Virus record (IMG/VR): IMGVR_UViG_3300021088_000012
Location: 1 to 61,188 of that record
From: a virus
Lineage: Duplodnaviria; Caudoviricetes
Length of the DNA: 61,188 bases
Strand: one strand, 5' to 3'
Numbering within the stretch: position 1 is the stretch's first letter; each line of letters begins with the position of its first letter. Shown piece after piece: positions 26,096-30,916 of this stretch. The notes beneath the pieces are model-generated. The model was not told the origin of the DNA. It saw only the letters and a list, made by a program, of their open reading frames with translations, and did no database searches. The position numbers and the translations under genes are program-made.

Positions 26096-29000
26096 ATGAA
26101 AAAAATATTTCTCTTCGCCCTGATTATTTATAGTTTTTCAGCTTTCGCGCAATATCCATCGCCGGTATTTACGAAACCAAATAATTCTTATGGAACTATT
26201 TTAAATGGATTTTCTCCGGATAGTGTATTTTACTTTCCAACAGGATGCGGAGTGCCGACGGATACTACTTTCCTGCATGCTCAACAAAATGGAGGTAAAG
26301 CGCAGAAATTGAGAAAGTGGGCGATTTATGGTGATACTTGTGGGCATAATTCTTATCTATGGGAACCGACTTTACAAATATGGTTCCTGATAAAAACAAA
26401 AGGAGTTGATTCAATTTTTAGAACGCCTGGGATTGATTCTATTTGTTATATATTAAATGGAAGGCAGCATTGCTTTTTGGATAGCGCTGGAGGTGGTGGC
26501 GGCGGAATTGATTCAACACTTCTTACAGGGCTTTGGATAAAAAGAAATTCTGTCGGAACAATCATTACAATCTATGCCGATAGCGCGGCAATGGCCTCTT
26601 ATTTTCTTCGCCGGGCGGACAGTGGCACTAATTATGTAACAGCTGCCCAATTAGGAAAAAAATTGGATACCTCCGTTCACTTCAATATCTACGTGCGAAG
26701 ATTGGGTGCCCCTGGAGATACGCTCCTCACAGCTTCAGACAGTACCTTACACGTAGCAGCCCAGCGAGACAGCATTGATGCGCATCATGTCATAAATCCA
26801 GATCTATCCTGGACGTGGTATGTGCAGGCGCATGATAGCACTTCCGCCAATGCCTTGGAGACCGAGTATGGGGCTGATACTGCGCGACTGGCGGTAAATG
26901 CAGCTTTAGCCAATAAAGTAACAAATGGAGGCGCTTCCAAAAGCTTTACTACGGGACTACTTTCAAGCCGGCCAGCAGCATCGAACTGTCAGTGCTATTA
27001 TGGCTCAACAACAGATTCGGTTCTCTATTACGATAATGGCGCATGGATTCCTATGGGAAGAGCAGGATCGGGGAGTAGCCTACTATTGAACAATCTTCTT
27101 TCTATCAATGGAGGCATAGGCCAATTGGGAGGCACATCAGCGAAGCCTAATACAACGCTTGGCTTTCATAATACCGATACTCTTACATACGACAGTCTAA
27201 AGAACCTCATTATCAGGGGCATGCCCTTATTGACCTCCTCTGCCGGGGCCTATGTAGTAGTGAGAGACAGCATCACCGGAAAATTATACGATATACCGGC
27301 ACAGCAGACTGACACTACCGGAGTAGCAGCAGGCATAGCCGCCGGAAATCTCATGATCGCTGTTTGGAATGGGGTGACGAATAAAGTTGTTTTTCAGGCA
27401 CTTCCATTAGGGCCATTCATTGTGAATAATAACTGGGTGGTGGCCAGTAATGTTTTAGATAGCGTGTGTATAAATTGCAAAGTCGCCCAAGCCCCTCTTA
27501 CGGATAGCGGAACTTTTGCTTTGAACGGTTTTCTGGGAGGAACGAATACCGTTACCACTAACCATGACTCTACGCAGACTCGTTATATAGTTGTGAACTA
27601 CCAGGGATCTGCTAAAATAGCTAATCAGTTAGATGTCACCTTAAATCAAGGGGCCACAACTGATACTACCTCTATGAATGTTATCGATATTAATTTACAT
27701 GATAACAATCAATCAAAACATGCTTCCATAAATGGCATTAATTTCAATATCCGAAAACAAACTGTCGGCGGCACTTTGGAAAATTTCACCGGAATTAATA
27801 TATCGTTGGTTCCTTCAGCCGGGGATTCTTTGGGAGGACTAAATTCTATTTTTCATCCGAATATTTTCAACCCATCCGGGTATGTTGGCACGATCGCTGC
27901 ATTCGATGCGGGGTTCCCGGCAGGTAGTTACAGCAACATAAACAAGATCATCGGTCTAAACTTCGGTAGTGGAGGAACAGCAACAGCCCAAAATGGAATC
28001 ATAGGAGTAAATGTTGGTGTTAGTGCAGCAGCTAACAATTATGGGATTAATTCTTTTGGGACTGCTAACAATCTTATGAATGGCCCATTGATCTTGAATA
28101 ATGTATTAGGGTCGTCTGGAACGCCAAAATTATTAGTGCATGCAAGCGATAGCAGTGCGAAGGAGATAAAACTAGGTTCTGGATTTTCTGTGTCTAATGA
28201 TACCTTGAATGTAACAGGAGGGGGAGGCGGGTCTACACTTCCATTAAAAGCTATTGGTTTTGGGAATGCCTCAAATACCTTGACAGGGGATACTACTAAA
28301 ATAAAATTCGATTCATCTGGGCAAGGGCATACTTATTTATACGTTAATAATGGCCCTGTAGCAACCGGCGACATTTCTGGTTTTGGCAATAGCATTACGT
28401 TTGGATTAAATGCCAACCCTCAAAATGTTAATGACTGGATTGCGCAATTAGCGTACAACTTAGGAACAACTCCAAATAATCTAGGACTAAGCTCTTCTAC
28501 TCTTGAAAAACAAACACCCCTAAACCCATTTGGGGCAGCGAATGCGATAGATAGAGTAGCCGGAACTATTCCCACAAAAGATGCTACTCATCGATTATTG
28601 GTAATCATGTATGGTATTAATGATGTACGGTATAATGGAGCTAACTACACGACTACTAATTTTGCGCTGGATTATGATACTGTGCTTACTTCCATTTACG
28701 CCAAAGGATGGGATAGCACAACTGTTATAATGACGAGCACTACCTATGTGGATTCAGCAAGCGCTTTCGTCTCTTTTTCCGGGAATCCTATCGCCACTTA
28801 TGCAAGGCAAGCAAGTTTTGATTCGACGATTCAGGCAAGGGCGGCATTTCATCATGTTAAATATGTTGACGTAAAAACGCCAATGATATTGGCAGGTAAA
28901 AAGGATGTATTAAGTTCTGATGGACTTCATCCTTCGAATGCTGGCCATAGGATTATTGCATTGGCGATAGCAAAAGCATTGGATTCCGCTAGAATTGATA

Positions 29001-30916
29001 CAAATTATAGATTTATAGTCAATGGAAACGCTAAGTTTGATGGCATCATACGATATAGAAATATGCCAGTCTTGGCAGAAAGTTCAATGCCTTTACATTT
29101 TGACAGCGTAGGGAATTTAGGTTATTCCATAAATGAAAACATATTTGGCAAAGCTTTGATTGGTGGCGCAATCAATAGTGATACGGCCAATTTAATAGTC
29201 AGTGGACAAATTCTGGCAGACGGATTGAAATTAGCTGCAAATGTTAGTTACCCAAACCCTACTACAGGTAATGGATTGTGGTTTAATAGATTTCCGACAA
29301 CGCAAGATTACCGCATAAATAACGAAGATTGGAGCACCTTAACACCACATGGGATTGCTATTAATGATGGGGGAGGGCCAGTAACTGTAGGAGGGACAAC
29401 ATTTGACCCAAATGGATCTAAATTGTTTGTACCCACCACTGGGATCAATACCGGGAACATGTATATAACAGGATTCAATCCGCCTTCCGTAGGTACAGGA
29501 ATGGAAATTGGGTGGAATGGCACTAACGGGTATATATATTGCTCTCAAATAGGAGTGGCGGCTAAACCTCTTATTTTAGGATACGGGGGATCTCCTACTT
29601 TAATAGGTGGAACCGGAGATGATGGCGTAAATGGATTTCAGGTTAACAGAACTCTATCCAGATTTTATGGAACGGTTGGTATTAATACAAATGCGGTGGC
29701 ACAAGCCCATCTTAAATTAGCGGCGGGTACAACACTTATTGCCCCATTAAAATTTGATACAACAGGGAATGTTTTGACTACCGTACCAAAGCCGTTCAAT
29801 CTGGAAATGTTAGCTGATAGTCTTTATTTCACTGGTTATAGTGGAACAAGATATAAGGTTTATCCTCAATCTTCGTCAGGTGTAACAGCAGTGGGGGCAT
29901 TCTCGGGAAGTTCTCAAACGAATGGAGCCTCTATATCTGGAAGCACTATTACTTTTGGGCCGGCAGATGCGACTAATCCGGGCATGGTAACGACAGGAGC
30001 ACAAACATTTGCCGGGGTAAAGACTCATAGCAATACTATAATCTCATCAGGCGGTTTTTATAACAGCGTTCCAGGCGCTCAGTTTGCAGGACAAGCTTCT
30101 ACAATCAACAATGCTATAACTGCTGCCAGCGGAACGGTAAGCAATTTCTCGAATTATGCTTTCCTTGCGCCGACTGTAACAAGCACGAACACTGGAGTGG
30201 TCTATAATAATCCAGCAACGTTGAGAATAAACAATGCTCCAACAATGGGAACAAATTCATCATCGACTGGATTTCTTTATGCACTCGATGTGGCAGCAGG
30301 CTTATCCCATTTCGGGTTAGGATCTTCCTCTATATCTGCGATATTCGACGGATCAGTTTCTCTCGGCACGAGTGGAAATGGTTCTTATTTCGTGAATGTA
30401 GGGGCATCCACTAGCAGCATAACGGCAATGAATCTATCTCCGGGCGTCAACCCTTCCTCAGCAACAGTTTCGGGAGATTTATGGTACAATGGCACCAATC
30501 TTTATTTTGGAGATGGGGGTGGTGTTAAAAGAGATTTATTAGCTCCTGCTACGGCACTTAAAGCGGAGGCATATATTTCTTCGCAGACTGCTACCAATAA
30601 CAATTTTACAACTTACGCCACGCCAGCATCGGACGGCATGTATGAAATAGGGGGTTACGTGAACGTCAGTTCTGTAACAGTTGACGTGTTGCAATTGCAA
30701 GTCAGCTATACAGATGAAACAAATACCTCAAGAACGGTGTCTTTTGTTAATCAGGGGGCTACCTCTGCGAATATAACAGCCACCGGACCCAGTCAATTCC
30801 CCCCAATGCGTATACGAGTAAAGGCGTCAACAACTATTAATATCAGTGCAGTGTTAACAACCGGAACCGGAAGCATCAACTATAATGCTGAAGGAGCTAT
30901 TACCTTGATAAAATGA
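26096..30916 (+). CDS. Large exported fibre/adhesin-like protein with SGNH (GDSL) hydrolase domain
   Basis: Sec signal MKKIFLFALIIYSFSAFA|Q; SGNH blocks FGNSIT, YGIND, DGLHP; Gly/Ser/Thr-rich beta segments; about 32 D-[ST]-[AILVMT] motifs. Confidence 0.82.
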   Translation: MKKIFLFALIIYSFSAFAQYPSPVFTKPNNSYGTILNGFSPDSVFYFPTGCGVPTDTTFLHAQQNGGKAQKLRKWAIYGDTCGHNSYLWEPTLQIWFLIKTKGVDSIFRTPGIDSICYILNGRQHCFLDSAGGGGGGIDSTLLTGLWIKRNSVGTIITIYADSAAMASYFLRRADSGTNYVTAAQLGKKLDTSVHFNIYVRRLGAPGDTLLTASDSTLHVAAQRDSIDAHHVINPDLSWTWYVQAHDSTSANALETEYGADTARLAVNAALANKVTNGGASKSFTTGLLSSRPAASNCQCYYGSTTDSVLYYDNGAWIPMGRAGSGSSLLLNNLLSINGGIGQLGGTSAKPNTTLGFHNTDTLTYDSLKNLIIRGMPLLTSSAGAYVVVRDSITGKLYDIPAQQTDTTGVAAGIAAGNLMIAVWNGVTNKVVFQALPLGPFIVNNNWVVASNVLDSVCINCKVAQAPLTDSGTFALNGFLGGTNTVTTNHDSTQTRYIVVNYQGSAKIANQLDVTLNQGATTDTTSMNVIDINLHDNNQSKHASINGINFNIRKQTVGGTLENFTGINISLVPSAGDSLGGLNSIFHPNIFNPSGYVGTIAAFDAGFPAGSYSNINKIIGLNFGSGGTATAQNGIIGVNVGVSAAANNYGINSFGTANNLMNGPLILNNVLGSSGTPKLLVHASDSSAKEIKLGSGFSVSNDTLNVTGGGGGSTLPLKAIGFGNASNTLTGDTTKIKFDSSGQGHTYLYVNNGPVATGDISGFGNSITFGLNANPQNVNDWIAQLAYNLGTTPNNLGLSSSTLEKQTPLNPFGAANAIDRVAGTIPTKDATHRLLVIMYGINDVRYNGANYTTTNFALDYDTVLTSIYAKGWDSTTVIMTSTTYVDSASAFVSFSGNPIATYARQASFDSTIQARAAFHHVKYVDVKTPMILAGKKDVLSSDGLHPSNAGHRIIALAIAKALDSARIDTNYRFIVNGNAKFDGIIRYRNMPVLAESSMPLHFDSVGNLGYSINENIFGKALIGGAINSDTANLIVSGQILADGLKLAANVSYPNPTTGNGLWFNRFPTTQDYRINNEDWSTLTPHGIAINDGGGPVTVGGTTFDPNGSKLFVPTTGINTGNMYITGFNPPSVGTGMEIGWNGTNGYIYCSQIGVAAKPLILGYGGSPTLIGGTGDDGVNGFQVNRTLSRFYGTVGINTNAVAQAHLKLAAGTTLIAPLKFDTTGNVLTTVPKPFNLEMLADSLYFTGYSGTRYKVYPQSSSGVTAVGAFSGSSQTNGASISGSTITFGPADATNPGMVTTGAQTFAGVKTHSNTIISSGGFYNSVPGAQFAGQASTINNAITAASGTVSNFSNYAFLAPTVTSTNTGVVYNNPATLRINNAPTMGTNSSSTGFLYALDVAAGLSHFGLGSSSISAIFDGSVSLGTSGNGSYFVNVGASTSSITAMNLSPGVNPSSATVSGDLWYNGTNLYFGDGGGVKRDLLAPATALKAEAYISSQTATNNNFTTYATPASDGMYEIGGYVNVSSVTVDVLQLQVSYTDETNTSRTVSFVNQGATSANITATGPSQFPPMRIRVKASTTINISAVLTTGTGSINYNAEGAITLIK

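Follow-up and report, generated by a model that had tools for sequence, protein, structure and literature searches.

Can a tailed phage send one of its fibres through the periplasm of its host? The question is raised by a 1606-amino-acid (aa) open reading frame (ORF) in the virus record IMGVR_UViG_3300021088_000012, the whole of which (61,188 bp, 100% complete by CheckV) was analyzed here and is hereafter referred to as the window. The gene starts 11 nt past the stop codon of a gene for a 495-aa collar-domain fibre. A first-pass annotation had proposed that its product begins with a cleavable signal peptide, is saturated with the D-[ST]-[AILVMT] sequon of Bacteroidota protein O-glycosylation, and travels through the periplasm, where the host would decorate it with glycans. 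On balance, we think it probable that the product of this gene is an SGNH esterase of modular, trimeric, tail-fibre-like build, made for the periplasm and not the cytoplasm. We strongly infer export and host O-glycosylation of the protein; its maturation very probably takes place outside the cytoplasm, in contrast to what is known of tailed-phage parts.

Recounting the 1606-aa protein gave exactly the 39 D-S/D-T dipeptides, 32 of them fitting D-[ST]-[AILVMT], that the first-pass annotation had put forward as approximate numbers; its estimate that roughly 20 of 24 Asp in the first ~400 aa are followed by Ser or Thr became 19 of 23 (residues 1-400). The comparison with composition-preserving shuffles, a check set beforehand, bore out the enrichment: 6.0 ± 2.3 sequons and 14.5 ± 3.3 D[ST] dipeptides are expected, and none of 2000 shuffles reached 32 or 39, respectively. 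The observed-to-expected ratio (O/E) is 5.30 for the sequon, compared with 0.99 for the reversed motif, 0.83 for D[ST] followed by other residues, 0.69 for N[ST]h (h, hydrophobic), 0.83 for [ST]Dh, and 1.11 for D[AG]h. These control motifs occur at, near or below chance, and the excess is confined to the full motif of three residues. The density amounts to 1.99 sequons per 100 aa and falls along the chain, with 21 sequons against 2.4 expected in residues 19-600, 10 against 2.3 in residues 601-1242, and none against 1.0 in residues 1243-1606.

Proteins without a signal peptide behave differently. The 15 signal-less ORFs of the window together hold 21 sequons (20.4 expected), and its tail proteins taken singly give 3 for the tape measure (4.6 expected), 1 for the 495-aa collar protein (1.5), and 6 for a 1375-aa virion protein (4.2), in which the roughly 11 D[ST] dipeptides of the manual count came to 12 (11.2 expected). 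Summed over 18 signal-less tail proteins of six phages, 61 sequons stand against 61.6 expected. Signal-bearing ORFs behind the tail genes of relatives are enriched (for example, 25 against 4.9, 13 against 4.0, and 7 against 1.2), and signal-bearing ORFs downstream of the 1606-aa gene in the window give 7 against 2.6 (reached by 24 of 2000 shuffles), 2 against 1.5, and 2 against 0.7. The fibre/depolymerase genes gp22-gp26 of PhicrAss001 (MH675552) likewise belong to a Bacteroidota phage, in this case a cultured one, and lie ahead of lysis genes, but their products have no signal and no sequon excess (shuffle z -1.4 to 1.7), so that the contrast with ordinary tail fibres drawn in the first-pass annotation holds in this control.

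As a host-lineage control, we took the ORFs of at least 200 aa from 725 kb of a Puia metagenome-assembled genome (MAG), away from the related prophage that it carries, and divided them into classes with a crude rule for signals. The 189 ORFs of the signal class, which also takes in some membrane anchors, contain 433 sequons against 268 expected (O/E 1.61; 0.45 per 100 aa). The 142 cytoplasmic-class ORFs contain 117 against 120 (O/E 0.97), and the remaining 138 contain 156 against 138 (O/E 1.13). The 1606-aa phage protein exceeds even the strongest Puia ORF sampled (z ~11 compared with ~7.3). With signal-less proteins at chance and signal-bearing ones enriched, the excess tracks export and not phage fibres in general. 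A separate compositional trait of the exported proteins is that Glu is scarce (0.9% in the 1606-aa protein, 1.2% in its family, 0-1.7% in exported ORFs of relatives); it makes up ~2-10% of the signal-less tail proteins of the same loci.

The enrichment recurs in homologues, as the first-pass annotation had proposed to check. A whole-library HMMER search with residues 1-750 returned 158 homologues at E ≤ 0.001, and 133 of at least 300 aa, in clusters at 50% identity, were used for sequon statistics. Their median shuffle z is 4.9, and z exceeds 3 in 75% of them. Pooled, they contain 1828 D[ST][AILVMT] motifs against 522 expected (O/E 3.50), although the members are related and the pooled counts are thus non-independent events. 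The pooled O/E of control motifs was 0.91 for the reversed motif, 0.57 for E[ST]h, 0.94 for N[ST]h, 0.99 for D[ST] with other residues, 0.87 for D[AG]h, 0.94 for [ST]Dh, 1.13 for G[ST]h, and 0.84 for D[NQ]h.

The residue at +2, directly after D[ST], carries a distinct fingerprint. Leu (2.24), Thr (1.77), Val (1.72), Ala (1.57), Ile (1.52), and Met (1.16) are enriched, Ser is neutral, and all remaining residues lie between 0.10 and 0.46, apart from Cys at 8.3, which we attribute to a conserved D-S/T-C-G-H in the N-terminal module described below. After Asp, Ser is found 1602 times and Thr 978 times. The published sequon is D(S/T)(A/I/L/V/M/T), with Cys and Ser among the rarer accepted residues and Ser favoured over Thr, as given in the available portions of two sources (PMC10897501, PMC12871550), and the family's +2 preference matches it exactly.

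We considered positional conservation as a cause of the excess and rejected it. Across homologue pairs aligned beyond residue 110 (high-scoring segment pairs of 25% mean identity), 114 sequons are common to both, of 392 in the queries and 302 in the subjects, or only about a third. Sites thus turn over, and it is density rather than particular sites that is kept. Among the 81 members of at least 800 aa, O/E by decile from N to C terminus runs 7.37, 5.15, 4.60, 4.11, 3.60, 3.72, 2.92, 2.16, 2.47, and 0.75.

The N-terminus reads MKKIFLFALIIYSFSAFA followed by QYPSP, that is, an n-region with Lys-Lys, then a hydrophobic core free of charges, and A-x-A ahead of Gln. Our signal call is a heuristic one, based on sequence features and their conservation across 151 family members (first residue M, V or L; at least 100 aa). 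A hydrophobic uncharged segment lies near the start in 148 of the 151, K or R precedes it in 144, and a small-x-small motif followed by Gln comes behind it in 133, so that the features of the cleavable signal peptide (SAFA before Q) named in the first-pass annotation are both present and conserved. Of the three members lacking the hydrophobic segment, one has a Glu in the core and two look, by eye, like truncated ORFs. In alignments A2 and A3, Q19 never varies. The next in-frame Met lies near residue 166, and there is no downstream start codon inside the conserved module. Gln at +1 of the predicted signal peptidase I (SPase I) site agrees with the "Q-rule" of Bacteroidetes SPase I substrates, in which this residue is cyclised to pyroglutamate and stabilizes extracytoplasmic proteins, according to the accessible parts of PMC5837995 and PMC10653852.

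Behind the signal, a module of ~105 residues opens most of the 158 matches. Its sequons at D42 and D56 are near-invariant, and D80-[ST]81 is kept in 122 of 122. When 123 modules were aligned with a hidden Markov model (HMM), 115 had Cys at both C51 and C82, seven had it at neither, and none at only one of them, with one sequence gapped. This covariation points to a disulfide, which would need the periplasm, and the Cys pair would thus lend independent support to folding in an oxidising compartment. An AlphaFold2 model of the module (26 sequences) reached a mean predicted local distance difference test (pLDDT) score of 65.8, too weak for a fold search, and an ESM Atlas feature search with residues 19-135 gave a best score of 0.84, under the level of a firm match.

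The remainder of the protein is built like a receptor-binding protein. Parts of the sequon-dense proximal shaft are common to P0012, P0013, P0014, and P0016. The central SGNH/GDSL domain matches PF13472 at 64.8 bits (cut-off 32.9) and PF00657 at 31 (cut-off 23.6), and further matches phrog_5240 "tail fiber" (E 1e-05) and, by sequence, PDB entry 3dc7. Residues 732-962 are 27% identical to the Pectobacterium phage PP81/PP47 protein annotated as tail spike or tail fiber, a receptor-binding-type gene with which only the enzyme domain is in common. Other family members carry a pectate-lyase-like domain or other parts in place of the middle, and such swapping is the mosaic habit of receptor-binding proteins. 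The region 963-1241 holds five sequons, and there are none beyond it.

The catalytic blocks of the SGNH domain are, as we read them by eye, presumably GNS (Ser), GIND, and DGLHP (Asp/His). The serine block (28379-28387) is thus G-N-S, where we take G-D-S to be the usual consensus, in a protein saturated with D-S-hydrophobic motifs. Among six related domains (including P0110, P0034, P0028, P0091, and P0002), the block is GNS in three, GHS in one, GYS in one, and GDS(I) in one. The GNS block could be an avoidance of glycosylating the nucleophile, a suggestion drawn from these six domains only.

In a model of the C-terminal part (11 sequences), only residues 1501-1606 are confident (block pLDDT 77-95), and the shaft folds poorly as a monomer. 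The best fold matches of this head are C1q (5hba; Z 8.8, 2.4 Å, 105 residues) and PRD1 P5 (1yq5; Z 8.5, 2.9 Å, 107 residues), followed by the receptor-binding protein of lactococcal phage 1358 (4l92; Z 7.9, 2.5 Å, 112 residues) and the tip of Bdellovibrio Bd2133 (8ok3; Z 6.9); it also aligns with collagen VIII NC1. Values of Z of 7-9 are common for this fold search, and we therefore read the head only as a fibre-head type of jelly roll. Identity to 5hba, 1yq5, and 4l92 is 11-20%, and the shared fold does not give the ligand. BFVD Foldseek matches of the C-terminal model, to collagen-like and fibre proteins, had mostly TM scores of 0.15-0.24 with very large root-mean-square deviation (rmsd) owing to the unfolded shaft, and were set aside.

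When three copies of residues 1467-1606 were modelled together, the score was 0.94, compared with 0.17 for the best of three controls; runs agreed in at least 76% of contacts, with partner pLDDT of at least 86. The score mark is reached by 20 of 30 solved same-chain pairs and 1 of 23 solved single chains, a calibration that is only approximate for the head trimer with its own alignment and three copies. The head is thus predicted to be a trimeric, C1q/TNF-like domain, although the high score may reflect solved C1q/TNF trimers already known to the predictor.

We read the gene context of loci L002-L005 and L050-L054. L002-L004 are IMG/VR contigs of 60-63 kb, L005 is the prophage of the Puia sp. 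MAG, in a 198-kb contig, and L053 and L054 lie in contigs of genomes of the Puia family (Chitinophagaceae). The gene order of the window recurs in L002-L005, L050, L051, and L053. In the window, L002, L003/L005, L004, L050, and L053, the tape measure, 1375-aa-type, and collar genes precede the module gene in this order, and in all siphovirus-type loci with enough flank (L002, L003/L005, L004, L050, L051, and L053) the module protein follows the collar-type protein. In L005, homologues of the 653-aa and 573-aa ORFs of the window come after the fibre gene. The module protein also closes two contractile-tail modules, L052 and L054, with sheath, tape measure, and baseplate hub identified by PHROGs; the signal can be recognised at its N-termini there, together with the motifs PT.CG and DSC and the Trp.

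The module gene was found in five of 301 genomes searched of the Puia family, three of them convincing, and such sparse occurrence is as expected of a prophage gene. In the metagenome contig L051, an ORF adjoining the phage genes (12643-13866, minus strand) is one that we take, by eye, to be a tyrosine integrase, followed by housekeeping-like genes; L051 would be an integrated prophage if that ORF is an integrase. Among 50,697 deposited phage records, blastn with the 1606-aa gene found no cultured relative, and tblastn matched the SGNH part only, leaving the N-terminal module, shafts, and head without a relative. The 653-aa neighbour likewise had no match in the cultured-phage search; the 1375-aa protein matches a Pseudanabaena phage and three faecal contigs.

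Signals of this type are handled by Sec and SPase I. On the explanation we favour, the gene would be expressed together with the tail genes, the preprotein exported by Sec and cut ahead of Gln19, and the new N-terminus cyclised to pyroglutamate under the Q-rule. The C51-C82 disulfide of the N-terminal module would then form and the protein would trimerise in the periplasm. There, host O-glycosylation would load as many as 32 sites of the canonical motif, or 39 if the extended motif is counted, most densely on the proximal 600 residues and not at all on the distal trimeric head, which would be left free to bind. The glycoprotein would be held in the periplasm, having no recognised C-terminal domain for type IX secretion (T9SS) and no lipid anchor, until released by holin and endolysin lysis, the genes for which lie just downstream. 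The four signal-bearing ORFs that follow would take the same route. In keeping with this, the Bacteroidota system is described in the available part of PMC12871550 as glycosylating the motif only on non-cytoplasmic proteins and nearly fully, as accepting engineered motifs in exported proteins, and as working across species.

No NCBIfam model of a T9SS or other sorting domain was matched at E ≤ 0.01 by the 1606-aa protein or its five neighbours. With this result and a C1q-like C-terminus, passage across the outer membrane is not predicted, although a divergent sorting domain could be present.

What happens after release is a more tentative matter. The likeliest single fate, though we put it somewhat short of an even chance, is that it docks on the virion made in the cytoplasm, where it would serve as a side fibre shielded by glycans or as a spike that modifies receptors. 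Docking is favoured by the gene's place in the fibre slot of two tail types, by an N-terminal module that is conserved while the distal parts are mosaic, and by a head that is free of sequons and predicted to be trimeric. A fuller and still more tentative version, for tailed phages of Bacteroidota at large, is assembly in two compartments, with heads and tails made in the cytoplasm and exported, disulfide-bonded, pyroglutamate-capped, glycan-coated long fibres attaching only once the holin has opened the inner membrane. The N-terminal module would mediate docking, or else its dense glycans would, bound by a lectin-like baseplate part; the latter would explain how a single module can serve siphovirus-type and contractile tails alike. 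A host-identical glycan coat would protect the shaft, and the head, free of sequons, would remain capable of binding.

Several points weigh against this picture. Tailed-phage particles are assembled in the cytoplasm, which sets a topological barrier between them and a periplasmic protein, and the signal-less collar-domain fibre could itself be the receptor-binding protein. A module common to siphovirus-type and contractile tails is odd for a baseplate-specific anchor, and the exported neighbours, with their enzyme-like look (a beta-helix, an RCC1/PKD propeller, and an alpha/beta-hydrolase-like lipoprotein), lack it. D-S/T-hydrophobic is also a helix- and turn-capping pattern, although cytoplasmic proteins show no excess of it. 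The host of the window phage appears to be a soil Bacteroidota of Chitinophagaceae type, a link made via relatives. The whole case is read from sequence, with a heuristic signal call, and the O-oligosaccharyltransferase of the Bacteroidota system is undiscovered according to the available part of the review (PMC12871550). As for the periplasmic route of the first-pass annotation, fibre position, the Gln +1 signal, sequon specificity, and restriction to signal-bearing proteins all support it, while glycan attachment is a prediction from sequence.

The topological barrier, the collar-domain fibre, the module's crossing of tail types, and the module-less exported ORFs equally favour the strongest competing explanation, in which the protein is exported and glycosylated but never becomes part of the virion. 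Together with its exported neighbours it would be a soluble accessory enzyme or adhesin freed at lysis, which might destroy receptors or degrade matrix and so keep progeny from being trapped; or it might work within the infected cell's own periplasm or envelope, for example in superinfection exclusion. Exported proteins of P. gingivalis phages have been read as envelope modifiers in the portion of PMC10367356 available. We nevertheless consider this unlikely, if still a serious contender, since a chain of 1606 aa in which a conserved module at the N-terminus is joined to mosaic distal parts and to a sequon-free head, predicted to be trimeric, is the classic build of a particle-borne receptor-binding protein, the gene is always in the fibre slot and coupled to tail genes, and no outer-membrane export signal was found that would allow action outside the cell before lysis.

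Far less probable is that the block is lysogenic-conversion cargo, expressed from the prophage to give the lysogen periplasmic or envelope glycoproteins apart from virion production. Relatives are indeed integrated in bacterial contigs (L005; L051 by eye; L053 and L054 in family genomes), and the P. gingivalis phages offer a precedent, so far as the accessible text of PMC10367356 goes. Against this, two genes of the block begin within the stop codon of the gene before them (30913/30916 and 32871/32874), an 11-nt gap separates it from the collar gene, it lies on the same strand between tail and lysis genes, no integrase was found among the window ORFs scanned, and the position is kept in two tail types.

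An ordinary cytoplasmic fibre, whose hydrophobic N-terminus is a tether, an assembly tag or a mis-set start and whose D-S/T-hydrophobic motifs are a habit of its fold, would fit the fact that, to our knowledge, all known tailed-phage fibres fold in the cytoplasm (PhicrAss001 being one control) and that D-S/T can cap helices and turns, but it is very improbable given the distant next Met, the conservation of the signal features including Gln +1 in 133 of 151, the covarying Cys pair, a +2 preference that copies the sequon with reversed and neighbouring motifs at chance, and the lack of an excess in signal-less proteins of the same phages and a related host.

The closest known systems include the Bacteroidota O-glycosylation substrates, among them the P. 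intermedia glycoproteome, which in the available portions of PMC12871550 and PMC10897501 have the same non-cytoplasmic targeting and sequon with Ser preferred over Thr. The protein described here differs in being phage-encoded within a tail module, in its density (1.99 compared with 0.45 sequons per 100 aa), and in its steep N-to-C gradient. The word "phage" occurs 0 times in the available text of that 2025 review of Bacteroidota glycosylation (PMC12871550). The nearest published remark concerns P. gingivalis phages, which resemble ours in being Bacteroidota phages with host-type SPase I signals that expose Gln; there, the signals belong to five genes without an assigned function, which were interpreted as modifying the outer membrane, the passage on them makes no mention of fibres, and "glycosylat" occurs 0 times in the main text (PMC10367356). 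The MAT fibres of Bdellovibrio bacteriovorus are phage-tail-fibre-like mosaic trimers made for the cell exterior, and a full-length construct starts at residue 21 with a PelB leader, as given in the available part of PMC10769870. Unlike the phage protein, they are bacterial, sit on the predator surface, and have no sequon system; the likeness of the Bd2133 tip to the head (rmsd 4.0, 108 residues aligned) is weak, tied with many others, and known from the fold match alone.

Glycans on tailed-phage structural proteins are reportedly also found in mycobacteriophages, where, in the work of Freeman et al. 2023, phage-encoded glycosyltransferases are said to modify the proteins of capsid and tail within the cytoplasm; in our case, a host periplasmic system would act on an exported protein. 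Our literature search found no paper on exported or host-glycosylated tailed-phage fibres, though Supplementary Data 4 of PMC10367356, which lay outside the search, may bear on this.

Table 1. Features of the window and of the 1606-aa ORF, with positions in the window.
Feature	Position	Strand	Basis or remarks
Portal	8063-9502	+	Pfam/PHROG
Major head protein	11192-12511	+	Pfam/PHROG
Tape measure	16463-20455	+	Signal-less; PHROG/Pfam
1375-aa virion protein	20456-24583	+	Signal-less; PHROG/Pfam
495-aa collar-domain fibre (weak tail-collar match)	24597-26084	+	Signal-less; PHROG/Pfam
1606-aa fibre-like ORF, first and largest of exported block	26096-30916	+	Open frame
Signal peptide, aa 1-18 (MKKIFLFALIIYSFSAFA)	26096..26149	+	SPase I cut predicted ahead of Gln19
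Conserved N-terminal module, aa 19-105	26150..26410	+	KPNNSYGT...DS.FYFPTGCGVPTDTT...Y.D[ST]CGH...W
Sequon-dense proximal shaft, aa 106-750, Gly-rich linkers	26411..28345	+	
SGNH/GDSL esterase domain, aa 751-969	28346..29002	+	Pfam match 763-953
Distal shaft, aa 970-1466	29003..30493	+	Low-confidence as monomer, fibre-like
C-terminal head, aa 1467-1606	30494..30913	+	No sequon; confident beta-sandwich 1501-1606
653-aa signal-bearing ORF with beta-helix	30913-32874	+	N-terminus, Pfam
573-aa signal-bearing ORF, RCC1-like propeller and PKD	32871-34592	+	N-terminus, Pfam
73-aa signal-bearing ORF	34596-34817	+	N-terminus
353-aa lipoprotein-like ORF with DUF5977	34821-35882	+	N-terminus, Pfam
Three small proteins, one hydrophobic segment each (C-terminal in first two)	35879-36196, 36212-36574, 36577-36975	+	
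Signal-bearing 162-aa ORF	37070-37558	+	N-terminus
Peptidase_M15_4 endolysin	37593-38099	+	Pfam

Five ORFs in a row, beginning with the 1606-aa gene, have signal-like N-termini (starts at 26096, 30913, 32871, 34596, and 34821; Table 1). The last gene of this exported block has the N-terminus MKKILLAVSFFICVAC and a C-terminal DUF5977 match at 82 bits; we also noted in its product a G-L-S-R-G-G that by eye resembles a serine-hydrolase-type motif. The region 35879-38099 that follows is lysis-type. Its 162-aa ORF, with a signal ending in AFS before Q, matched no Pfam or PHROG family and is possibly an outer-membrane lysis component. In PhicrAss001, gp27 (25093-25695), annotated as a lysis regulator, carries a hydrophobic segment at its N-terminus and holds 4 sequons where 0.3 are expected (reached by 0 of 1000 shuffles), which suggests that exported lysis proteins of Bacteroides phages may also be glycosylation targets.

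Elsewhere in the window, we considered the minus-strand genes at 1685-7824 as a glycan-tailoring operon that might help make a glycoprotein, and rejected this, as no glycosyltransferase was found by Pfam among the nine ORFs (E ≤ 0.01). The matches were Methyltransf_23 (1685-2317), a weak HTH_7 (3281-3952), and GIY-YIG with NUMOD3 (6413-7165), the last a homing-endonuclease-type ORF; the six other ORFs matched no Pfam family at this threshold.

New here are the findings that the Cys pair covaries, that the +2 residue shows the exact sequon fingerprint, that sequon density declines from the N to the C terminus, and that one module occurs in two tail types, as well as the control with the host lineage. 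If the proposed explanation is true, it would break the rule that all tailed-phage parts fold and assemble in the cytoplasm, and it would place host-made glycans on the receptor-binding gear of many environmental and gut Bacteroidota phages. Expression of such fibres for structure determination or engineering would then need a Bacteroidota periplasm rather than the E. coli cytoplasm, and host-range prediction would change. The protein would also be a selective read-out for the still poorly understood Bacteroidota O-glycosylation, with a sequon density more than four times the host average and a binding tip cleared of sites. The combination of a Q-rule signal and a sequon excess would, in that case, provide a simple signature for assigning uncultured phages to Bacteroidota hosts.

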